A stretch of 64,000 nucleotides of DNA, taken from positions 10,683-74,682 of the forward strand of contig JANOAS010000367.1 in NCBI GenBank assembly GCA_031411255.1, in the 5' to 3' direction. Position 1 is the first letter of the stretch. Every line of letters starts with the position of its first letter. The stretch comes from a bacterium (GTDB lineage: Bacteria > Verrucomicrobiota > Verrucomicrobiia > Verrucomicrobiales > V1-33). Shown piece after piece: positions 24,705 through 61,400 of the stretch. The notes under the pieces are model-generated. The model was not told the origin of the DNA and did not search any database. It saw nothing but the letters and a program-made list of their open reading frames with translations. The position numbers and the translations under genes were made by a program.

Positions 24705-24882
24705 GAGGCGGGCTCGCAGGCATCCACTCCATGCCGTGTGTGCAGCACGCGGCACGGAGAAGGCCAGCCGCGAAGCGAAGGGCCGAGGATTAAATCGGAT
24801 AGAGGATGGGAAAATCGGGCACCGGCCCAAGGAACGAGACTTTGCAATTCTCGCCGCGCCCCAAGCTCGTAACACGGGGCAC

Positions 24883-24980
24883 GGGCGCACGGGGGAACGG
24901 GCGCCCGGGGGAACGGGCGCACGGGGGACCGGGCGCACGGGGGGAACGGGCGCACGGGGGAACGGGCGCACGGGGCACGG
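24883..24980. repeat. imperfect 16-nt tandem repeat (GGGCGCACGGGGGAAC) x6, G-rich on + strand
   Basis: Units at 24883, 24899, 24915, 24931 (17 nt), 24948 and 24964. It lies in the convergent intergenic region about 180 nt after the giant-gene stop. Confidence 0.9.
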
Positions 24981-25316: not shown

Positions 25317-25354
25317 AGAAAAAAGGGCCGCGTCCCTGGAGAGGAACGCGGCCC
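25317..25354 (-). terminator. Rho-independent terminator of the LamG gene
   Basis: The minus strand reads GGGCCGCGTTCC-TCTCCA-GGGACGCGGCCC (one bulge) followed by TTTTTTCTG. It starts about 25 nt after the TAG at 25379-25381. Confidence 0.8.
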
Positions 25355-29355: not shown

Positions 29356-29787
29356 TCAGGATTGGCGTCCCTCGTCCACGTCGATGTAATGGGCAATGGT
29401 GGCGATGTCGTCCCGGCCGGAGAGCCCGCCGTCGGCCTTGCGGCGGATGAGCGCGGGGGTGACGGTGTCGTTCCAGCCGAGCTTGGAGACGTAGTGGCGC
29501 CAGACGAGGAGGTCGGCGTCGTTGAGTGCACGCCCGTGCTCCTGGCACCAGGCGTGGATTTCCTCATCCGTGCCGCCCGCGAGCACCCGTGCGGCCAGGG
29601 CGTCATAGGAAATATGGAGGAATCCGCAGCAGGTGCCGTCGAGCCCTTTGCCGAGGTTCTCCTGCAGATCAGCCCACAGGCACCCTGCGGCATGGAGGCG
29701 GATCTTGGCCAGCATACGGGGGAAATAGAGGAGGCCGCAAACTTCGTCGAGGGGACTGCAGGGGAGGGAGGCGGGGTCGGTGGGCAT
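29356..29787 (-). CDS. DUF5069-like protein
   Basis: 143 aa with CGLLYFPRMLAKIRLHAAG...LGKGLDG.CCGFL...GGTDEEIHAWC. This matches my recollection of the DUF5069 pattern (G..lpR.ldK.R....G). Its stop is 60 nt upstream of the sigma gene on the same strand. Confidence 0.55.
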   Translation of the reverse strand: MPTDPASLPCSPLDEVCGLLYFPRMLAKIRLHAAGCLWADLQENLGKGLDGTCCGFLHISYDALAARVLAGGTDEEIHAWCQEHGRALNDADLLVWRHYVSKLGWNDTVTPALIRRKADGGLSGRDDIATIAHYIDVDEGRQS

Positions 29788-29789
29788 GG

Positions 29790-29869
29790 ATGGAGGGATG
29801 GAGGGATGGAGGGCTAGAGGTTTAGAGGTTTAGAGGTTTAGAGGTTTAGAGGTTTAGAGGTTTAGGCTT
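29790..29869. repeat. phased octanucleotide tandem array: (ATGGAGGG)x3 then (YTAGAGGT)x6 plus one degenerate unit
   Basis: Read directly from the sequence. There are 10 contiguous 8-nt units starting 3 nt upstream of the DUF5069 start codon (cat at 29785-29787). On the coding (minus) strand it reads (ACCTCTAA)6(CCCTCCAT)3CC-ATG. Confidence 0.95.
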
Positions 29870-32382: not shown

Positions 32383-32886
32383 CTACGCCAGGACCGCTCC
32401 GGCCAGCGGCGTTGCCACAAAGCACGCATTCTCAAATGCCAGGCCGTTGCCATTCGTGATGTCCCCGCCGGCGAGGGCGGAAAGATGGATGCCCGGATCG
32501 ATGAGGAGCGCCGGATGCACCAGCACCTCCTCGCCCACACGCAGCCGGGGGATGACCGTCCGGCCATACACGTAAATCTCAAAGCCCAGCGTCACCCGGG
32601 CGCCCGGCTCGAAGGGGAAGCTCTCCACGTAGCCAATCACGCCCGCGCCATTCACCAGATCCTCAACCGCTCCGGTCTCCGGATCGATGGAAACTCCGAG
32701 CCCGTGGCTTTCAGGCCCGAACGAGTGGTGGCCCTCCTCCAGCAGCCCGATGAAGAGCTTTTGCCCATACTCCACCGTCTGGCACTCCACCGTCAGAACC
32801 AGATGGCAGTGATCCGCCAGCGCAGGGTCCACCGGGAGGCGTTGCACCGAATAAAGATCGCGGTCGTGGGAGTAAAGCAGGCTCAT
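32383..32886 (-). CDS. hypothetical protein (167 aa)
   Basis: It has normal-looking composition and is the only plausible frame here. I recognise no motif. Confidence 0.5.
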   Translation of the reverse strand: MSLLYSHDRDLYSVQRLPVDPALADHCHLVLTVECQTVEYGQKLFIGLLEEGHHSFGPESHGLGVSIDPETGAVEDLVNGAGVIGYVESFPFEPGARVTLGFEIYVYGRTVIPRLRVGEEVLVHPALLIDPGIHLSALAGGDITNGNGLAFENACFVATPLAGAVLA

Positions 32887-33000
32887 GGGATTGGATGGTC
32901 AGGGTGTTAAATCGGAAATCAGCGAGGTTTTCAAGAAAAATGAGAGCCGAACCGGAATTTTCGCCGTTTTCAACGGCTCCATCCTGCCTCAACTCTCCTC

Positions 33001-33115
33001 TCCTTGCAAATAGAAAGGATAATTAATACAATTACCATAATAACTGATATTTTAGATAATCAAACAAAATTTTATAAAAATTTTAGAATCCCATCCTGCC
33101 GTAGGTGAAATCCTC
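33001..33115. promoter_or_regulatory. extreme AT-rich island in a divergent intergenic region
   Basis: About 115 nt are overwhelmingly A/T in a GC-rich genome. It contains the direct repeat ATTTTAGA(TA)ATC twice and the near-palindrome AAAATTTTATAAAAATTTT. Function not established. Confidence 0.5.
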
Positions 33116-33164
33116 GTTATTTCCCGCTTTTGCATTGACGGGTTGGCCGGGTTCGCCAAGAATC

Positions 33165-33429
33165 GCAGCAGTCCGAAAGAAAATCGGACGCCTTCTTTGA
33201 CAACTTTTCCTGCGGTGTTCGAGACTCCCTGGCATTCGGGCCCGAACCGTTATATATCAACGGAGGCCGCACCTGGGCGGAAAATGCCATGCCTCTCCTA
33301 CAGGAAGGCAGGCCCCGCTCAGGAGCCTCCACCTTGCCACAAACAAGGGAACGCGGCCCTAACCATCGACGGCACCAGCGGGAAATCCTTTGCGGCCCCG
33401 GCTTCAGCAGAAGCCGGGGCCGCTTTTTT
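33165..33429 (+). ncRNA. candidate small RNA (unclassified) ending at an orphan intrinsic terminator
   Basis: The 3' end is defined by the terminator at 33392-33429. A possible sigma-70-like promoter is TTGACG (33135-33140), N17, AAGAAT (33158-33163). Local helices are visible: GTCCGA/TCGGAC at 33170-33188; GGCATT...AATGCC (33231-33293) enclosing CCGTT-ATATATC-AACGG and CCGC-ACCTGG-GCGG. There is no plausible ORF. The 5' end is a guess. Confidence 0.3.
33392..33429 (+). terminator. strong Rho-independent terminator with no annotated upstream + strand gene
   Basis: A perfect 14-bp stem GCGGCCCCGGCTTC / GAAGCCGGGGCCGC with loop AGCA, followed by TTTTTT. Confidence 0.85.
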
Positions 33430-33594
33430 CTGCCGCGGCATCGCCCATGGCGAAAAACGCCCCGGCCCTCCGCCCGCCCTGTTCGCGTTCGATTTGGGGT
33501 GATTGGTGATTTGCCTCCCTCGCCCTGGCCTGGAAACCATTTCCGCGCCTTTGCGGTTGTCAAAGGGGTGATTCCCCGGTACGGATTGGACCTT

Positions 33595-33635: not shown

Positions 33636-35051
33636 ATGGAAAGCCCATCTGCCCCAACGAGCCAGCCTGGCGTCGTCATCCTCGGCGGCGGTCCCACGGG
33701 ACTGTATGCCGCCCGCCGCCTTGTGGAAAAAGGGGTGCGCGTCACCCTGCTGGAGAAGGAGTCCATCCCGGGCGGCCTCGCCACCAGCCACCGGCGGGGG
33801 GAGAATTTCTACGACATGGGCGTGCACATGCTCCACGAGTTCGACGAGGAGATCTACCACGACATCCTGTCCATCATGGGGGAGGAGAGCATACCCGTCC
33901 CCCTCAGCGCCAAGATCCGCTGGGCGGGCTCCTTTTACCGCTACCCGCTCCAGTTTGCGGACATGATCCGGGGCATCCCGTTTTTCACTCTCGTGAAGTG
34001 CGTGACCGGCCTGCTCGCCTCGCAGACGTGGTTCAAGATATTCCCCCGCAAGCCCAAGGATGCCGAGGAGGCCCTTCAGCAGCTTTACGGAGATCCGCTC
34101 TACCGGTTCTTTTTCAAGGATTTCACCCAGCGCTACTGGGGCTTCCCCACGGACCAGCTGAGCGCCACCTTCATCACGTCGAAAATGCCGCGCCTCACCG
34201 CCGTGGACGTGATCAAGAAAGTCCTCGCCAAAGTGGGCATCAAGGACAAGAACGTGCACGCCGTGGACAGCGCCCTGCTGGAGGAAACCCTCCACTACAG
34301 CCGCACCGGAGCCGAGGCCATGCCGCGGCACCTGGCGCGCTACATAGAGGAAAAAGGCGGCCGCGTGGAGTACAACGCCGACGTTTCCGCCCTGGAGGTG
34401 ACTGACGGCCGGGTTTCCGCCATCCGCTGGCGGGACACCGTCAATGGCGCTGACGAACGCATCGAGTGCTCCCACTGCATCAATACCATCCCTCTCCCCG
34501 TCCTGGTGCAGCGCCTGGAGGGGCCCATCCCCGACAGCGTTCGCGAGGCCGCCGCCGCCCTGCGCTACAAGCCGATCACGGTGCACGGGCTCCTCGTGAA
34601 AAAGGAGAAGTGCATCGACGCCCTCTATATTTACTACCGGGAGCGCATTTTCCACCGCGTGGGCGACCCGAAGAACGCCGGGCTCGTTGTCAAACCCGAT
34701 GGCCACAGCGTCCTCATCGTGGAAACGACCTGCGAGAAGGGCGACGACAAGTGGAACGCCACGCCGGAAATCCGCGAGCAGATCATCCTCGACCTCGAGG
34801 CTGAGAACATCTGCCTGCGGGGCGACATCGTGGAATGGAACGTACTTCATTGTGAAACCGGCTACCCAGTCTTCAGCCTCGGCTTTGAGGAACCGCACGA
34901 AAAGGTGAAAACCTTCCTCGCCACCCTGCCCAACCTCCAGTCCACAGGCCGCCAGGGCGGGTTCTGCTACCCAAACATGCACAGTGCCATGCGGATGGGG
35001 GCAAAGGCTGCCGACTCCATTTTGAACTTCGTCTCCAAACCCAAACCCTGA
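33636..35051 (+). CDS. NAD(P)/FAD-dependent oxidoreductase (amine-oxidase / UDP-galactopyranose-mutase-like fold)
   Basis: N-terminal Rossmann motif VVILGGGPTGLYAARRLVEKGVRVTLLEKESIPGGLA. Length 471 aa. Confidence 0.8.
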   Translation: MESPSAPTSQPGVVILGGGPTGLYAARRLVEKGVRVTLLEKESIPGGLATSHRRGENFYDMGVHMLHEFDEEIYHDILSIMGEESIPVPLSAKIRWAGSFYRYPLQFADMIRGIPFFTLVKCVTGLLASQTWFKIFPRKPKDAEEALQQLYGDPLYRFFFKDFTQRYWGFPTDQLSATFITSKMPRLTAVDVIKKVLAKVGIKDKNVHAVDSALLEETLHYSRTGAEAMPRHLARYIEEKGGRVEYNADVSALEVTDGRVSAIRWRDTVNGADERIECSHCINTIPLPVLVQRLEGPIPDSVREAAAALRYKPITVHGLLVKKEKCIDALYIYYRERIFHRVGDPKNAGLVVKPDGHSVLIVETTCEKGDDKWNATPEIREQIILDLEAENICLRGDIVEWNVLHCETGYPVFSLGFEEPHEKVKTFLATLPNLQSTGRQGGFCYPNMHSAMRMGAKAADSILNFVSKPKP

Positions 35052-38833: not shown

Positions 38834-39715
38834 TCAGGCCGCCCCGACCAGGCTCTTCACGCGGTCCAGCGCCTTCAGCGCGACCTCGCGCGCCGTCATC
38901 GGATCTGTTATGGAGTACAGGGCCTTGCGCAGTTTCATCGCCCGCGTGCGGTGGTGGAAGATGCGCACCTGGTCCCAGCGGCCCTCTTTTTTCAGCGGCT
39001 CCTCCATCATGCCCCGCGCGTTGTATTCGCAGTTCGGCAGCGGTCCAAATTTCAACCCGGCGGCATCCATTGCCCCTGCGGCCTTCACCCGGTGGAAATA
39101 CTCCTGATCGCAGTTGTAGCCGGCCCACATGTCCTTCGGGTCGTGCGGCATGATCGCCTCCTCCCACGCCTTCAAAAACGCCAGAGTGGCCGCCCTTTTC
39201 CGGTAGAGCAGCACCCCGGTGTTGAACCCCTCGGGATCCACCAGCGCCTTGAACGACGGAGGAGTCGTCGCCCAGTCCGCGGCAAACATGTTGGCCACCG
39301 CAAAGTCGAGATTCGCCAAGTAGTCAAAGACCTGCTGAACCGGTCTCAGAATGAAGGTGTCCGTGTCCAGGAAAAGTGTTTCCTCGTAGGGTGATTCCTT
39401 CAAAATCATCACCTTTTGTTTAAGTGGATGCTCTTCGGACTGGTAGTCAAAGTGGTCGCACCGGGCCGAGGCTGGCGGCTTGTACGGGGAGAAGAGCGTG
39501 ACTGGCAGGTCCGGCTCCTGACGGCGCAGACTTTCAAGTGAGGTGAGCAGCTCGCCCATGTAGCTGCGCCCTCCGGCCACGAGGTAAATGACTCCGCGCC
39601 GTGCCCTGGGGGGACGGCTGGCGGCTGGCTGGGCGGCAGTGGGCTGGGTCACGAGAGGCGATGAAGGGGAGAGTGGTTCAGCTTTCTTAACGAGTCTAAC
39701 ATTCGTATGTTTCAT
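38834..39715 (-). CDS. nucleotide-diphospho-sugar transferase (GT-A/GT8-like)
   Basis: VIYLVAGGRSY..., the DxD-type motif LFLDTDTF, and NTGVLLY. Confidence 0.55.
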   Translation of the reverse strand: MKHTNVRLVKKAEPLSPSSPLVTQPTAAQPAASRPPRARRGVIYLVAGGRSYMGELLTSLESLRRQEPDLPVTLFSPYKPPASARCDHFDYQSEEHPLKQKVMILKESPYEETLFLDTDTFILRPVQQVFDYLANLDFAVANMFAADWATTPPSFKALVDPEGFNTGVLLYRKRAATLAFLKAWEEAIMPHDPKDMWAGYNCDQEYFHRVKAAGAMDAAGLKFGPLPNCEYNARGMMEEPLKKEGRWDQVRIFHHRTRAMKLRKALYSITDPMTAREVALKALDRVKSLVGAA

Positions 39716-39792
39716 AAAAAAGGCAAGGATTTGGTTGAAATTTACGAAAAATTTAATACTTTCCAGATGTGTTAGCTTCTGAAACCGTTTCC

Positions 39793-41139
39793 ATGACCGA
39801 CGAGGACCATCGCGAACGCAGGGCGCGACGGATGAATCTTGCCGTCATGGTTTCCCTTTTTTCGAAAGGAGGAAACTCCCTCATTCAGCTTGTCGCGCTC
39901 CCGCTGGCCATGCGGGCGCTCGGCGACAGTTTTGCCGTGTATGGGTTGATGCTCTCGGTCATGTGGGTCGTCTACATGGCCGACATGGGCATCGGCGGGG
40001 GTGTCAACCGCAGGATCGCCTCCGCCTCCGCCCGTGATGACAAGGAGGCGATGCGCCGCACGACTTCGGTCGGCTTTTTCGCGACCTGCTTTTTCTGCCT
40101 GGTGACGGCAGTCGCCTGCTCGCTTGTCCTCACCTTCGTACCGGTGACCACGCTGTTCGGGGAGGGGTTTGCGCCTTACGCCGGGGAGCTGAGGCTGTGC
40201 CTGTGGATTGGCCTGGCCATTTTTCTGGGCATGGTCAGTCTGTCCACGTTCAGCTGCGTTCGGGACGGCATGCAGGAGGTGCATGTCATCAACAGTTTTG
40301 GGGCCGCCAGCAACTTTGTCCAGGCTGCAGCCTTGCTCGTGGGGCTGCATTACTTTCCCGACGTGTGGTTCCTGATCGTCGCGATGTTTGGCACGCAGTT
40401 TCTCGCCTTTCTGGCCAATGCCATTCATCTGCTCTGGAAGCGCCCGTGGCTGGTGCCGCGCTGGTCGGATGTGAGCGTGCCCGTGATCCGCACGATGCTG
40501 GGCGAGGGATTTATCATGTTTCTGGCCTTCATGCTCGCCCCGGCGCTCCAGCGGGAGGGGATGAAGTGGCTCATCGGGTGGAAAATCGGCCCCAAGGCGG
40601 TGGAGCACTACACTATTTTGACCCAGCTGGGATTCTTCGCCGCCGGGTTCGTCGTCATGTTCATGCGTCCGCTCTGGCCTGCCGTGACGGAGGCGGTGAG
40701 CCGCGGGGATTTCCCGTGGGTGCGGCAGATGAAAAACAAGGTCTGGCTCGTGTGGTCTGTCTGCAGCCTCCTTGGCATCATGTGCATGGGCTGGTGCGGG
40801 CCCTGGCTGCTGGAGCACGTTTACATCCGCAAACCAGTCTCCCTGGACGGGAGGGACATGGCCCTCTACGGCGCTGTCCTCTCGCTCACCATCTGGTCTG
40901 CGGTGAACTACTACCTGCTCGCCGGGTGTGGTGACCTGCGGCGGCCGGCCTTCCTGCTGGCCGTGGAGTCGGTCTTTGCCCTGCTCATCGGCACCGCCGG
41001 AGTTCACTATTTTGGCCTGGATGGCGGGCTGGCCGCCCTGTCTCTGGCCATGCTTCTTTTTTCCGCCTGGGTGCTGCCAGTGCGCCTGCAGCGCCTGCTC
41101 CGGAGCCAAGCGAGCCCCGCCAACCCGTCCGTCGCGTGA
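39793..41139 (+). CDS. polysaccharide flippase (Wzx/MOP superfamily)
   Basis: About 12 predicted TM helices. The N-terminus FSKGGNSLIQLVALPLAMRALG is typical of MOP flippases. It lies in a glycosyltransferase context. Confidence 0.6.
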   Translation: MTDEDHRERRARRMNLAVMVSLFSKGGNSLIQLVALPLAMRALGDSFAVYGLMLSVMWVVYMADMGIGGGVNRRIASASARDDKEAMRRTTSVGFFATCFFCLVTAVACSLVLTFVPVTTLFGEGFAPYAGELRLCLWIGLAIFLGMVSLSTFSCVRDGMQEVHVINSFGAASNFVQAAALLVGLHYFPDVWFLIVAMFGTQFLAFLANAIHLLWKRPWLVPRWSDVSVPVIRTMLGEGFIMFLAFMLAPALQREGMKWLIGWKIGPKAVEHYTILTQLGFFAAGFVVMFMRPLWPAVTEAVSRGDFPWVRQMKNKVWLVWSVCSLLGIMCMGWCGPWLLEHVYIRKPVSLDGRDMALYGAVLSLTIWSAVNYYLLAGCGDLRRPAFLLAVESVFALLIGTAGVHYFGLDGGLAALSLAMLLFSAWVLPVRLQRLLRSQASPANPSVA

Positions 41140-45340: not shown

Positions 45341-45631
45341 TCGGGAGGGATGGGGAGCGGGAGATGCCTGACCCAGCTTGATTGTTTGGAAATACAAAAA
45401 GTATGCCGAGATTTGTAGATGCTGGAAACGGCGCCTTAGTATAGTGGTTATATTTAGAATTACTAGAGAAAACTTCACTTTGAGTCGCAATTGTCATTTT
45501 TGCGCATCGGGGCTGTCCGTCGCCGCTGGGGCGGGCAAAGCCGGAACCGCAGCCTGCGGGGTGTCGCCCTGGCGAAAAGATAGGGGTGAACCAGGGCGGG
45601 TTTCTCTGGACAAGCTGTCATCTTCATTACA

Positions 45632-54072: not shown

Positions 54073-57000
54073 ATGAAAAAAACACTCTGGATCGCTTTGG
54101 CCGGCCTTTGCTTAGGATTTTGGACGCTTCATCATGATGCCCCCAACCCGAAACACTTCCCTGTAGGGACCCCTGCCAATCCCCCGCGGCAAGCCCCTGC
54201 GGAAACGGGGGCATCAGCGGGCCATGCCATCGCCGGGTCCCAATCCTCGGAGTCCAAAGGCAGTGCTGGCCTGTTGCCTTCCGGGGCAATGTCCCGTGAA
54301 CTGCAAGAGGAGGAGCGTGCCTCTTTCTACGAAGTGGTTCAGGCGGCACGCCATGCGGTCACTTCGCTTCTGCCGGAGGAGGCCCGACTGCCGCAGAATC
54401 TCGGGGTGCATTATTTTGCCGCCAATCCGGGTCAGAATCTGACAGCTAGATTTCTGGAAACCGGGGTGCGCCTTGAGTCCGGCAGACCTGATCGCCAATG
54501 GCGGGCGCAGTTCGGGATCCACTCCCCCACCAGGGTGCGTCCGTCGCAGTCGGCTTCCTCGCGGGTGGAATATGCCTCCCCTGAGGGAGTTGTTGAGTGG
54601 TATCAAAACCGTCCCGAAGGAATCGAGCACGGCTTTGTCCTTCCAAGCCGCCCACGCCCCCCGGCACCGGAAAACACCGCTGATCGGGAATGCGGATTGG
54701 AAATTCCGATAACGGGCGACTTGCGACCCGTGGCCGATCCGGATTCGGTCGGCGATATCCTTTTGGTGGATAAAAACAGTGTCCCGGTGCTGGGCTACCG
54801 TCAGCTCAAGGTGTGGGATGCCACCGGCAGGCCATTGCCTTCCCGGATGCGTCCCAGTGCGGCTGGCGTGCTGCTGGCCATCAACGATGCCCAGGCTGTG
54901 TATCCGGTGACGATTGATCCACTGATTGTGAATTTGGAGCAGAAGCTCAAACCGCAGATTGGCACGGCCGATTCCCATCTCCTCACGGGAGCGAAGTTGG
55001 GCACTTCCATCAGCATTTCCGGTGAGACGGCCGTGGTCGGGGGAGTGGGGGAAAGGTCCGTCTATGTTTTTGTCCGCTCGGGCGGGGTCTGGACTTTTGA
55101 AGCGCGCCTCAAACCTGGCACAAACACGGATGATCAATTCGGCCAGAGCGTTTCGATCTCCGGTGAAACCGTGTTGGTTGGCGCTTATCTGGACGATTTA
55201 TCCACGGGCAGCAACGCAGGGAGTGCTTACGTCTTCATGCGGAATGCGGGAGTGTGGAATCAGCAGGCGAAATTGGTGCCCGGCGACTCCGCGGCAAGTG
55301 ACACGTTTGGCGTTTCCGTCAGTTTGGAAGGAGACACCGCGTTGATTGGCTCCCGCCTGGATGATGACCGGGGCAGCAATTCCGGCAGCGCTTACATTTT
55401 CAAGCGCACTGGCACTGTGTGGAGCCAGGCGGCCAAATTGACCGCCACCGATGGACAAAGTGGAGACGAGTTTGGGGTGCGGGTATGCCTCTCCGGTGCC
55501 TCCGCATTGATTGGGGCCACCTATGATGACGACCGCGGCAGTGACGCCGGGAGTGCTTACGTCTTCACCGGCAGCGGGGCCAGTTGGACGTTTCAGCAAA
55601 AACTGACGGCGGCGGACGGCGTGGCGGGAGACAACTTCGCCAGCGCCCTCTGCCTGTCCGGCGATGCCGCAGTCATCGGTGCCAGCGGCGATGATGACCG
55701 GGGCAGCAATTCCGGCAGTGCCTACCTCTTCACCCGCAGCGCCGGCACCTGGAGCCAGCAGCAAAAAGTCACCGCCTCCAACGGTTCCGCAGGAAGCTAC
55801 TTTGGCGGCGCGGTGGGGCTGGACGGTGACCACGCCGTCATCGGAGCCCATCTGGCGAACACCGTCTATGTATTCCAGCGCTCAGGGGCCAACTGGACCG
55901 AACAGACCCGGCTGACCGCCGGAGCGGGGGACGGTTATTTCGGCGTCAGTGTGGCCATCGCCGGCTCCACCATCGTGGGTGGGGCCTTCGATGAAGACGG
56001 ACCTAACAATGCATCCGGTGCCGCGTATGCCTTCGTCCGGAATGCGGGCACGTGGGGTTTCCAAGCCCAGATGCCGGTGGATGATGCCGCTCAGGAAGAC
56101 CGGTTCGGGCAGGCTCTGGCCATTGATGGAGATACCATTCTGGTGGGCGCGGCATCGGACAATACCCCGGCCGGGGCCGGGGCCGGAAGTGCCTACCTCT
56201 TCGTGCGCAGCGGGACCACCTGGACGCAGCAAGCCCGATTGCGCCCGGCCGATGCCGCGAAAGAGGATTTTTTCGGTTCGTCCGTCAGCCTCTCCGGCCA
56301 GTCCGTCCTCGTTTCCGCCAGAGGGGACGATGATCGCGGAGATGGTTCCGGCAGTGCCTATGTCTTTGTCCGTTCCGGTAGCACCTGGAGTCAGCAGGCC
56401 AAACTGACCGCCGCTGACGGGGCCAGTAATGACGACTTTGGCTATTCGGTCAGCCTGGATGGCGACACGGCGCTGGTGGGAGCACTTTACGCCGATGGCG
56501 TCTATGTTTTTGTCCGCACTGGTGCCGTCTGGACCCAGCAAACCAAACTGACCGCCGCCGATGGTTCCAACGGGCAGTTCTTCGGGGAAGCTGTCAGCTT
56601 GCAGGCGGACACCGCCGTGATCGGGGCGTCGCGCGACAATGAAAAAGGGAGCAGTGCCGGGGCCGCCTATGTCTTTACCCGCAGTGGCACTGCCTGGAGC
56701 CAACAGGCCAAACTGGCCGCTGCCGATGCTTCGCAGGGAGTTCAGTTTGGCAATGCCGTCAGTCTCCGCAGCGATACGTTGGTCGTTGGAGCCTTCGGCG
56801 CACAGAATGCGGCAGGTAGTTCCACCGGAGCCGCGTATGTTTTTGTCCGCCAAGGTACTCTGTGGACCCAGCAGGCCAAGCTTTTAGCGACGGATGGCCA
56901 CGCGGGTGCTTGGTTTGGTCACTCCGTGAGCCTATCCGGCGAGCGGGTGGTGGTGGGGGCCCGATACGACAATGAGCGGGGTTTTGAAGCCGGCGCTGCC

Positions 57001-58375
57001 TACGTCTTTGTCCGAACCGGCACTTTCTGGACTCCCCAGCCCAAAATCACACCCGCTGATGCCGGTTCCGGCGATTTCTTTGGAGTCGCGGTTGGTCTGA
57101 GCGGCCAGACGCTGGTCATTGGAGCTTCCGGTGATGACACGCCCCTGCCTGATGGCCGTCCAGTCAAGGATCAGGGCAGCGCCTATGTCTATTTGCTCAC
57201 CCCGGTGCCGGGTCCGGAAATCGTGCTGCAGCAGTCCAGCGGACCGCAACTTTTTGATGACCAGTCCACCGTCGTTTTCAGTGCTGCCGTGGGTAGCTCC
57301 CAATCCCTTTCCTTCCTGCTGCACAATGTCGGGGACGCCTCCCTCAGCGGAATATCCGCCAGCCTGTCCGGACCTGGAGCTTCCGCTTTCTCGCTGGTCA
57401 CCCCTCCCCCTGCGGCCGCCGCCGCCGGCACCTCCACGCCTTTCGGCATCCGATTTCAACCCACCGCCGCCGGCATCCTCAACGCCACGCTTACCCTCGT
57501 CAGCAACGATGCCGACGAAAACCCTTTCACCATTCAACTTCGGGGCGGGTTTTTCGTCGATCTTCCCTTGGCTCTCGATGCTGAAGGCTTCGTCTTCACC
57601 ACCAAAACCGGGACCGGCTGGTATGGTCAGACGGATGTCGCCACCATCGGCGGGGACGCTGCGCGCAGCGGCCCAATCGACCAATACGAGTCCAGTGACC
57701 TCAGCACTACCGTCACCGGGGCCGGCACCCTGTCCTTCTGGTGGAAGGTCAGCTCCGTGCAGTTCTTCGATGAACTTCGCCTTTTTGTGGATGGCAGTTT
57801 ACGGACGTTAATTTCCGGAAATGTGGACTGGCAGCAGCGCACCCTTCAAATCACCGAACCTGGCAGTCATGAAGTCCTCTGGCGTTATAAGCGGCAATCC
57901 AGCACCCCCGCCGGCAGCGATTGCGGTTGGGTGGATGGCTTTACCTGGACTGGTCAATCATCCCCAATGACGGACTGGGCCACCGCCGCCGGCCTGACCG
58001 GCAACGAGGCGCTGCCCCTCGCCACCCCCCAAAGGCGATGGCGTGCCCAACCTCCTGAAATTCGCCTTCAACCTGAATGGGGCGGCGGCGGACAGCCGCA
58101 TCCTGACATCCGGGACCGGCACCGCCGGGCTGCCGGTGATTGCCGTGCAGGGCCCGACGGGGGGACGTGTGCTGCGGGTGGAATTCCTGCGCCGCATCGG
58201 CAGCGGACTGACCTACACGCCGAAGAAAAGTCCCGGTTTGAATGCGGGTTCGTGGCTGCCGCTCGCGGCTACGCCCACCGTCACCCCAATAGACGCCGCC
58301 TGGGAGCGGGTGGTTTACCTGGACCCGGTCACCGGCGGCAAGTGGTTTGCCCGGGTGGAAGTCGCGCTGCCGTAG
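54073..58375 (+). CDS. giant secreted FG-GAP-repeat protein, interrupted by a +1 frameshift at a C6 run (58025-58030); intact length would be 1433 aa
   Basis: Signal/TM-like N-terminus MKKTLWIALAGLCLGFWTL. At least 17 repeats of the form FG.SVS(I/L)SG(E/D)T.(L/V)VGA..DD.....GSAY(V/L)F. A choice-of-anchor-D-like domain (FGIRFQPTAAGILNATLTLVSNDADENPF) and an SFWWKVSS...LRLFVDG lectin-like domain follow. After EALPLATP the 0 frame becomes Arg/Gly/Pro-rich nonsense. The +1 frame reads KGDGVPNLLKFAFNLNG...KWFARVEVALP, the same C-terminal module as the 2815-aa protein. Confidence 0.85.
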
Positions 58376-58391
58376 GTCCCGGTTTTCCGAC

Positions 58392-58418
58392 AGGAGGCGG
58401 GAGCCTCCTTCCTTTTAT
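58392..58418 (+). terminator. Rho-independent terminator after the FG-GAP gene (in the corrected frame)
   Basis: AGGAGGC-GGGA-GCCTCCT followed by TCCTTTTATT, 17 nt after the TAG at 58373-58375. Its position supports 58375 as the true gene end rather than 58701. Confidence 0.65.
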
Positions 58419-58474
58419 TAACATAGACGTTCCCATTCTGCAACCTGCCAAATTTTTAACCGCAATTTCTTTTT

Positions 58475-61400
58475 ATGACGCGATTTATTTGCTTCCATGT
58501 GCTTATTTTAGGATGCTGGCTGTTTGGCTGGGTGCCTTGCCGCGGGGAGTCCGCTGCAAGTTTGCTGGATTTGCTGAAAGATCCCGGGGAGAAGACCCTC
58601 ACCGGGACCCAGCAGGGCCAGAGTGTGGCGTGGGCGAATGGTTTGGCGGTGGTCGGAGCCCCGGTCGATTTTTCCGGCGGGATCAGTGCCGGTGCCGTTA
58701 AAATCTATGATGCGGCGACAGGCAGTTTGCAGCGAACTCTGTTCAATCCTTCGCCTGCAGCGTTGGACAATTTCGGCATGGCGGTGGCTGCGGCGGGATC
58801 GTGCGTGGCAGTGGGGGTTCCAAATGATGACACTGGGGCCACAAATGCCGGGCTGGTCTATGTCTATGACCTCGAAGGTTCCAACCCTGGGGTTCCGGTG
58901 GCTGTGTTGGCAAATCCGAGTCCGGCGGTGGATGATTTTTTTGGGAGTGTAGTAGCGATGGAAGGCACTCTTTTGATCACAGCGGCGTATAACGATGATA
59001 CCGGGGCCACGAATGCAGGAGCCGTGTACGTGTATGATCTGGCCGGCGTCTCCCCGGAGGTGCCGGTCCGGGTGCTGGCCAATCCAAGTCCGGCGACGTC
59101 TGATTTCTTCGGGCGCGCCTTGGACATCTCCGGAAATTTGGTGGCGGTGGGGGTGCTCAATGATGACACCGGAGCCAGCAATGCCGGGCTGGTCTATGTG
59201 TTTGATTTGGCGGCGGCCGATCCTGCCGTGCCGACGGTGACGGTGCCGCACCCGGCCCCCGCGGGTAATGATAGCTTCGGCAGCGCCGTGGCCATCAGTG
59301 GAAACCGGCTTGCTGCAGGTGTCCCGGCTCATGATACCGGGGCCAGCAATGCCGGACGGGTTTATTTATTCGACCTTTTGGGGAGCACGGCATCCGTGCG
59401 GACGGTGTTGGATAATCCCGCGCCGGAGAGTTCCGACCAATTTGGATCCGTGCTGGCGATGGACGGACCCCTGGTGGTGGTGGGGGTGCCGCAGGATGAT
59501 AGCGGAGCCTCGAATGCCGGCAGCATTTATGTGTTCGATGCCAACCGGGCGATGCCAGCGCTCCCTGCGGCGGTGATTCCGCATCCCGAAGCAGGCAGCT
59601 CCCACCAGTTTGGCTTTTCCGCGGCCCTCTCCGGCGTCCGGGTGCTGGTGGGGGCACCCATTCCTGGGAGTGCTTTTGTTTATGAGGTGAGCGGTGCGGT
59701 GCCGGTGCGGGGGCCGGATTTGCGGCATGCTTCGCTGGCCGGAGACAATCGTTACGGGACGGCGGTGGCGGTTTCTGGGAGCAGGGTGGCCATCGGTGCG
59801 CCCAATGACGACACCGCCGGAACGGATGCCGGGCAGGTTTACGTCTATGACCGGAACAGTGCGACGCCCGGCGTACCGCTGCTCCGTCTGACCAGGCCGG
59901 GTGCCCTGAACACTGACCGGTTCGGCTCCGCCCTGGCGCTGGAAGGGGATATCCTGGTCGTGGGAGCTTACATTCAGGAGTTTGGCACTAGCAGTGTCGG
60001 ACGGGCCTTCGTCTATGATCTGGCGGCGGCTAACCCCTCGGAACCGGTGCGGGTGCTTTATAATCCCGAGCCGGGCGCCCAGGATAACTTCGCGCGTTCA
60101 CTCGCCATCTCGGGGAGCCGGGTGCTGGTGGGCGCTCCCTACAGGGGCCCCGGCGACACGGGCACAATCTACGTTTTCGATCTGAACAGCACCCAGCCGG
60201 GGCGTCCGGTGGAAACGATTCACAATCCGGCACCGGCGACGAATGATTATTTCGGCTGGGTGGTGGCGATGGGGGGGCGCTACGCGGCAGCGGGGGAAGG
60301 CAGCGCGGGTTCAGTCTATGTTTTTGATTTGGATGGGGCCATTCCCAGCCGTCCGCTGGTAGTTTTGCAAAATCCGGTTTCCGGCCCGGCGAATAGTTTT
60401 GGAGCCAGCCTGGCCGTGGCCGGCAGTCTGCTGGTGGTGGGAGCCTCAGGAGATGATACCGGCGCCACCAATGCCGGCCGGGTTCATGTCTATGATCTGG
60501 CAGCGGCGGTGCCTGGCGTGCCGTTTATGACCCTGCCCCCGCCGATACCGGTGGCGAATGACGCATTTGGCTCTGCGGTGGCGGTCTCCGGCAGCCGGGT
60601 GGCGGTGGCGGCCCAGCGCAATGACACGGGCGCGACTGATGCTGGACGGGTTTTTATCTATGATCTCGCGACTCCGGCGCCAACCGCACCGTTGTGGACA
60701 TTGGACAATCCAGCCCCTGGCACCAGCGACGAAATGGGAACCGCGCTGGCTCTGGATGGAACGCGATTAGTGGCGGGGATGCCGAGAGATGACGCCGAGG
60801 CTCCGGACTGGGGCGCGGCCGCCCTGTTCGATCTGCCCCGGGGGCGTCCATCGGTCAGCACGGGGACCGTCAGCGGAGTTACTTCAGTCCAGGCAGTGCT
60901 CTCCGGCACGGTTCATCCGCACGGATTAGGCACGACGGCGGTTTTTGAATATGGACTGACGACGGCCTATGGCAGCAGCACCGCGGTCTCGCTCACTCCA
61001 CCGGACGGCAACGCTGCGCAGCCAGTCTCCGCTACTCTTAATGGGCTGACTCCGGGAGCCGTCTATCATTACCGGCTGATGGCGCAAAATGCGGCTGGCT
61101 CCTCGCTTGGACTGGACCGCATTTTCACCCCGGCCTCAGTCTATCCCGCCCACTGGGCTTCAGCGGCGGGCGTGCCCGTTTCCGCATCGGGCTTCACCGC
61201 CACGGGGCGGCGGTTGTCAGCCCTGACTTTTGGTTTCTTTCCGGCTCCGGGCACGGCGTTGACGCTGGTGAATAACACTGCTGGCACGCCGGTGGCGGGC
61301 ACCTTTGTGGACCTGCCCGAAGGAGGGACCGCCACTGCGGTTCATTCCGGTGAGACTCTCCACTTCCTGACAACCTACCAGGGAGGGGACGGGAATGACA

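Follow-up and report, generated by a model that had tools for sequence, protein, structure and literature searches.

Introduction

6S RNA is a nearly universal bacterial RNA family (PMC8414754), the members of which are rods of ~180–200 nt with a large central bubble between a closing stem and an apical stem that contains internal loops, and which are recognisable chiefly via covariance models (PMC8876501). Such an RNA mimics an open promoter and binds the RNA polymerase holoenzyme containing the housekeeping sigma factor, and it dissociates when the enzyme makes a short product RNA on a template that runs from the bubble's 5' side into the neighbouring helix (PMC8876501, PMC9670815). The 6S RNAs of Bacillus subtilis are processed at their ends: a 5' leader is removed from the 6S-1 precursor, and the terminator hairpin is retained or trimmed (PMC10578484). 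The Actinobacteria contain Ms1 RNA, which is rod-like and structurally related to 6S RNA, and which binds the core of RNA polymerase and not the holoenzyme (PMC9130861).

Here, we report on an RNA gene within a 64-kb stretch of DNA, called the window in the following, from an uncultured Verrucomicrobiales bacterium. The gene, located at 33204–33388 on the plus strand, is almost certainly a bona fide 6S RNA gene (ssrS). Compared with Escherichia coli SsrS and B. subtilis 6S-1 and 6S-2, its RNA has the same rod, a length of ~185 nt and a match to the full covariance model, and we see no essential difference. It shares a small hairpin on the 3' side of the bubble with B. subtilis 6S-1 (PMC8876501) and a probable 5' leader as well as a terminator hairpin with the B. 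subtilis 6S RNAs (PMC10578484), the leader being predicted to comprise ~34 nt including a hairpin in the window in contrast to 11 nt in 6S-1. Ms1 is likewise a rod-like, 6S-related RNA; however, the RNA in the window matches the 6S model and its host belongs to the Verrucomicrobiales and not to the Actinobacteria. Compared with the 6S genes of its nearest relatives, which follow pheST, the gene in the window stands free in a divergent gap, and unlike those it is preceded by an extremely AT-rich block.

Identification of the 6S RNA gene

The gene lies in a gap of 749 bp that is flanked by an open reading frame (ORF) on the minus strand, with its start at 32886, and by one on the plus strand, with its start at 33636. 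The original prediction, made by inspection of the sequence, had described this divergent gap together with a very AT-rich block at 33001–33115, a promoter-like TTGACG-N17-AAGAAT match at 33135–33163 and a strong terminator, and it had proposed that an independent small RNA is encoded between them. The gap, the block and the promoter-like match were recovered at these positions, and a promoter-like site and a terminator of its own bracket the RNA, in agreement with an independent transcript. The features of the locus are as follows:

33001..33115 (no strand): AT-rich block, GC 0.22–0.24, with phased A4T4/A5T4 tracts at 33068–33086 and four promoter-like matches
33135..33163 (+): sigma-70-type promoter-like site from a consensus scan, -35 TTGACG at 33135–33140, N17, -10 AAGAAT at 33158–33163
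33171..33189 (+): leader hairpin of 6 bp, GUCCGA-AAGAAAA-UCGGAC, in the minimum free energy (MFE) fold of 33170–33432
33204..33388 (+): body of the 6S RNA (SsrS), 185 nt, from the RF00013 match, the fold, covariation in relatives and a clade-specific model
about 33206–33222 with 33363–33385 (+): closing stem, MFE fold
33235..33248 (+): candidate template of the product RNA (pRNA), a prediction made by transferring the E. coli start site via the Rfam consensus alignment
33245–33261 (+), or 33249–33261 in the consensus structure: 5' side of the central bubble, 17 nt, AACCGUUAUAUAUCAAC, single-stranded in the fold
33262–33330 (+): long, imperfect apical arm with its loop at 33299–33302, MFE fold
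~33332–33349 (+): 3' side of the central bubble with a small CCUUG/CAAGG hairpin, MFE fold
33392..33429 (+): intrinsic terminator at the 3' end of the gene, with a 14-bp stem, an AGCA loop and T6, from a scan for hairpins with T-runs

Scanning both strands of the window with 4227 Rfam models (cmscan) yielded 6S/SsrS (RF00013) as the sole match at gathering level in the whole 64 kb. It covers 33204–33388 (+) and model positions 1–187 of 187, i.e., the full length. E is 2.3e-8 when all 64 kb are searched and 2.8e-10 when only the gap is, and the score of 55.7 bits exceeds the gathering score (46.4) by only 9 bits; ~13 of the model's pairs are non-canonical in the window's sequence in the Rfam alignment. 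The match starts 41 nt past the -10-like hexamer and stops 3 nt short of the terminator stem. No other Rfam family reached its threshold in the window, no riboswitch family matched even at E <= 1, and neither a tRNA nor a tmRNA was found within the 64 kb. The other matches in the gap stayed far below their cutoffs (BjrC68, 15 bits; CsrB, 12.5 bits), the BjrC68 alignment being limited in its pairing to the terminator hairpin and one short helix. A second copy of 6S was not detected in the window with the clade-specific covariance model described below. Three features of the 6S family, a gathering-level score over the full model, the rod fold and compensatory changes in homologues, are found for this RNA.

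Fold of the 6S RNA

The 185-nt segment alone folds with an MFE of -80 kcal/mol (z = -4.3), and its MFE fold equals the centroid fold. The longer segment 33170–33432 reaches -122.4 kcal/mol (z = -6.1), a value that was attained by none of 200 dinucleotide shuffles. The rod layout of closing stem, bubble and apical arm, with imperfect helices in both arms, is also present in the RNAalifold consensus of the relatives, and in one short helix of the closing arm (columns 28–32 with 165–170) the copy in the window keeps three of five pairs. The original prediction had drawn a possible three-way junction instead, enclosed by GGCATT and AATGCC. The conserved, covariation-supported fold differs: it is the rod, in which GGCAU (33231–33235) belongs to the closing arm, where its partner is the 3' strand, and UGCC (33285–33288) to the apical arm, where it pairs with GGCA, and the junction was rejected in its favour.

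The terminator and the question of attenuation

The terminator stem (33392–33405 with 33410–33423) consists of 14 perfect pairs, 12 of them G-C, and is followed by T6 at 33424–33429. It had been predicted to be among the best terminators in the window and is in fact the strongest, ranking first in a window-wide scan of hairpins with T-runs at -32.8 kcal/mol compared to -26.4 kcal/mol for the runner-up. The latter is a terminator-like hairpin on the minus strand at 25317–25354 with a 13-bp stem followed by TTTTTTCT. A GC hairpin with a T-run lies directly 3' of 6S also in all 16 nearest relatives, the T-run in one of them (L078) being broken by one A. Membership of the hairpin in a dispersed, REP-like family, named in the original prediction as a finding that would speak against an RNA gene, was tried and rejected for the window, the DNA searched here: the hairpin belongs to no repeat family and, with up to 3 mismatches allowed, has no second match within the 64 kb.

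Since the element points in the direction of the downstream gene, the start of which lies 200 nt beyond its end, it could be read as a long leader or attenuator of the downstream flavoprotein and aminotransferase genes, in which 33308–33320 would alternatively pair with the 3' arm of the terminator. The original prediction had offered a cis-regulatory leader as its second option and had noted a likeness of 33308–33320 to the 5' arm of the terminator; indeed, this segment could form a duplex of -18.8 kcal/mol with the 3' arm. However, the terminator duplex itself amounts to -32.8 kcal/mol, each of its pairs has a probability of 0.99–1.0 in the ensemble, and when the 5' arm was forced open the 6S rod stayed intact and the 3' arm was not captured; no competing fold emerged. 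The likeness rests on the shared 7-mer GGCCCCG, which is no commoner than chance with 31 occurrences in the window compared to ~45 expected. Moreover, the element is present in none of 44 loci of the downstream gene's relatives, most of which include upstream sequence, as judged by Rfam, by blastn and nhmmer and by the clade-specific covariance model, and in other lineages the RNA follows pheST. We consider attenuation highly improbable on these grounds, and the RNA is treated as a free-standing 6S gene in the following.

Relatives and covariation

While blastn and nhmmer gave no 6S match in the flavoprotein-gene loci, relatives were found by scanning metagenomes with a pattern of the closing stem, which resulted in 107 loci. 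The nearest 16 are 68–72% identical to the window's RNA, and Rfam independently labels 6S in eight of 16 loci of relatives that were scanned, with 46.5–73.4 bits. The near-clade alignment comprises 14 sequences, i.e., the window and 13 near relatives, and its RNAalifold structure is a rod of 56 pairs. A clade covariance model, R1, was built from this alignment; it recovers 52 of 59 other non-redundant matches at full length, and it rejects the single pattern match that resembles coding sequence (L117).

Within the near clade 96.4% of cells are paired compared to 34–46% if the partners are slid by 1–3 columns, and in a broad set of 53 sequences (A2) 90.6% compared to 41–46%; both percentages are inflated because the sequences that were scored had also yielded the structure and the A2 alignment was fitted to the model, whereas the counts of compensatory pairs, set against the slid controls, are unaffected. 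Compensatory changes on both sides were observed at 17 of 56 pairs in the near clade, where none of 500 shuffles attained any of five measures, and at 42 of 56 pairs in the broad set, where the covariation score was 0.409 compared to 0.127 for shuffles. The covariation proposed as a check of the original prediction is thus present in both sets, beyond slid and shuffled controls. The 12 invariant pairs of the broad set coincide with the pairs that the search pattern prescribes, which form the core of the closing stem; all of the covariation signal therefore comes from helices that the pattern leaves unconstrained. The weakest helix is the one predicted inside the bubble, with 68.7% paired in the broad set, as expected for a true bubble.

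These data also bear on the label unclassified, which the original prediction had attached to the RNA. A new small RNA outside the known families was suggested by the free-standing structured unit with its own terminator and by the failure to match it by eye to SRP RNA, tmRNA, RNase P or the riboswitches, a comparison in which 6S had not been considered. The Rfam scan proposed at that time shows the RNA to be of an already known family, since the curated RF00013 threshold is passed over the full model; furthermore, the RF00013 scores of relatives that align with the RNA rise to as much as 73 bits and the 6S rod architecture is shared, with covariation, and novelty can practically be dismissed. 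Equally negligible is the possibility that a GC-rich structure arose by chance beside a dispersed REP-like hairpin and that the Rfam match is a false positive: in a genome of 64.5% GC stable hairpins are common and the score is close to its threshold, but the E value stands for 64 kb, both strands and 4227 models, the z-scores of the fold were computed against dinucleotide shuffles, the terminator hairpin is single-copy in the window, the compensatory changes of the orthologues well exceed the slid and shuffled controls, and the clade model turned down the sole coding-like pattern match.

The Rfam 6S model seems to under-call the clade of the window. Among the 12 closest 6S relatives, eight (L049, L066, L070, L076, L078, L093, L130, and L135) miss the RF00013 gathering score and the four that pass it reach 46.5–51.6 bits only. 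R1 assigns 179–205 bits to all seven closest-clade relatives scanned, five of which are sub-threshold in Rfam, all seven being R1 training sequences. Because the eight relatives fall just under the gathering score, 6S genes of this clade are probably under-annotated where annotation is automated; the genes missed at the Rfam threshold would be recovered with a model made for the clade, such as R1.

Promoter, leader and AT-rich block

The promoter-like site agrees with 9 of 12 sigma-70 consensus positions and is the only plus-strand promoter-like match between the AT-rich block and the 6S body. Given its position and the predicted fold, the 6S gene likely has a 34-nt 5' leader that contains the hairpin listed above. 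Hairpins of 6–7 bp located 6–7 nt before the 6S body were also observed in seven relatives (L076, L078, L103, L105, L107, L112, and L129), with stems that differ and yet are complementary (CCCCGAA/TTCGGGG, TCCCGAA/TTCGGGA, and GCTCGA/TCGAGC, compared to GTCCGA/TCGGAC in the window); in L130, L135, L049, and L093 such a hairpin is absent.

The AT-rich block is the most extreme low-GC segment of the 64 kb, with a GC of 0.24 over 33000–33099 compared to a window mean of 0.645 (sd 0.062), and it carries four of the region's five promoter-like matches, on both strands. Upstream of 6S in the 16 nearest relatives there is no such block, the GC being 0.42–0.61. Milder low-GC islands elsewhere in the window lie in intergenic gaps, of which two appear divergent (39651–39810 and 45371–45510). 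Probably, and with modest confidence, the block represents shared upstream and promoter DNA of the two divergent units.

Further small repeats were observed around the gene. A perfect 10-nt direct repeat, CCATCCTGCC, at 32979–32988 and 33091–33100 brackets a 102-nt AT core (GC 0.23), as a target-site duplication would; among composition-matched shuffles of the gap, 38% contain a direct repeat of this length at some position. The 6S body and the terminator are bracketed by a perfect 10-nt inverted repeat, CTTTGACAAC/GTTGTCAAAG, at 33195–33204 and 33556–33565, one arm of which ends at the 6S 5' end. An inverted repeat of this length somewhere in the gap is found in 55% of composition-matched shuffles and the placement of an arm at the 6S 5' end in 0.9%, the latter being judged post hoc. 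The motif TTGACAAC also resembles TCGACAAC/TTGACAAC located just upstream of the relatives' 6S. The segment ATTTCCCGCTTTTGC (33119–33133) shows 87% complementarity to the 3' strand of the 6S closing stem (33372–33386) and would be transcribed only if a distal promoter in the AT-rich block is used. Within the 206 nt that separate the terminator from the start codon of the flavoprotein gene, GGGGTGATT occurs twice, at 33496–33504 and 33565–33573 and thus 69 nt apart; these could be sites for a regulator or a product of chance.

Gene context

The downstream gene starting at 33636 (+) encodes a flavoprotein of the flavin amine-oxidase family, the best relatives of which stem from environmental metagenome-assembled genomes of the Verrucomicrobiales/Akkermansiaceae with 56–72% amino acid identity; it is this protein that assigns the window to the Verrucomicrobiales. 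In the 44 loci of its relatives no counterparts of the 167-aa upstream ORF, of BatA or of the aminotransferase were found, and a 160-aa ORF has counterparts in two of them. In five related Verrucomicrobiales genomes (L012, L013, L019, L021, and L040) the flavoprotein gene is preceded by a divergently oriented 16S rRNA gene, on the minus strand from position 1 to ~1523; at the corresponding place in the window are the 167-aa ORF, the AT-rich block and 6S. Exact-protein look-ups of both flanking genes for strain variants returned only one 13.9-kb Logan contig (run SRR20217193).

In the nearest relatives the 6S gene directly follows pheS-pheT in the same orientation (TIGR00472, 724 bits; TIGR00468, 311 bits), and the 64-kb window contains no pheT. 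In near relatives (e.g., L130:2516-6194) an imperfect hairpin of ~26 bp is located between the pheT stop codon and 6S, which suggests co-transcription with processing, a pheT terminator or another structured element. In E. coli, the 6S gene is situated upstream of ygfA. Since the gene order around 6S differs between lineages, synteny is of no help in finding orthologues; none of the relatives shows synteny between 6S and a neighbouring gene of the window, and gene order lends no support to the identification.

Conceivably, the lineage moved 6S from a pheST-linked site to a free-standing unit and thereby gained regulatory DNA, comprising the 102-nt phased AT insert between direct repeats as an upstream activating or curved-DNA element and the leader hairpin together with the gene-flanking 10-nt inverted repeat as processing or stability signals. 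We regard this scenario as unlikely; if true, it would be a lineage-specific twist on the expression of 6S and not a new kind of RNA.

Proposed mechanism

The sequence analysis itself shows the identity of the gene, the fold, the covariation, the terminator and the promoter-like match; that the RNA is transcribed, is processed at its ends, binds the polymerase and templates a pRNA is deduced from its membership in the 6S family. The gene would form a free-standing transcription unit with a predicted start near 33170 and its end at the terminator, giving a primary transcript of ~260 nt with the leader in front and the terminator at the 3' end, from which trimming probably yields a mature RNA of ~185–190 nt. 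If it acts like its E. coli and B. subtilis homologues, the rod would mimic an open promoter and may occupy the active site of the RNA polymerase holoenzyme containing the housekeeping sigma factor, damping transcription in nutrient scarcity. Upon nutrient upshift the polymerase would synthesise a short pRNA with the bubble's 5' side as template, and the 6S RNA would thereby be released.

In E. coli, pRNA synthesis starts at U44. Transferred to the window, pRNA synthesis is predicted to start near A33246 or C33247/C33248 and to read toward the 5' end, with a product of approximately 5'-G(G)UUCGGGCCCGAA-3'. A perfect 12-nt palindrome, UUCGGGCCCGAA at 33235–33246, lies inside this predicted template and was noticed as a self-match; it is absent in the 6S relatives and therefore probably due to chance.

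Implications for annotation and further observations

The RNA family is long known and standard annotation would label the gene as 6S, so the lineage-specific points, namely the free-standing gene, the leader hairpin and the AT-rich block, are minor and the finding has little significance beyond correct annotation. As a heuristic, an orphan strong terminator in an ORF-less divergent gap did locate a real non-coding RNA gene.

Elsewhere in the window, short tandem arrays were observed at 24875–24978 and 29785–29864 (a G-rich, GGGGGAACGGGCGCAC-like unit at 16-nt spacing; an 8-nt unit, GAGGGATG -> GAGGTTTA). Moreover, diverged coding repeats with a spacing of ~165–168 nt extend over 55059–57059 and 58827–60675 (repeat families D1, D5, D9, D10, and D12), those at 55059–57059 being located inside a 1542-aa ORF at 54073–58701.
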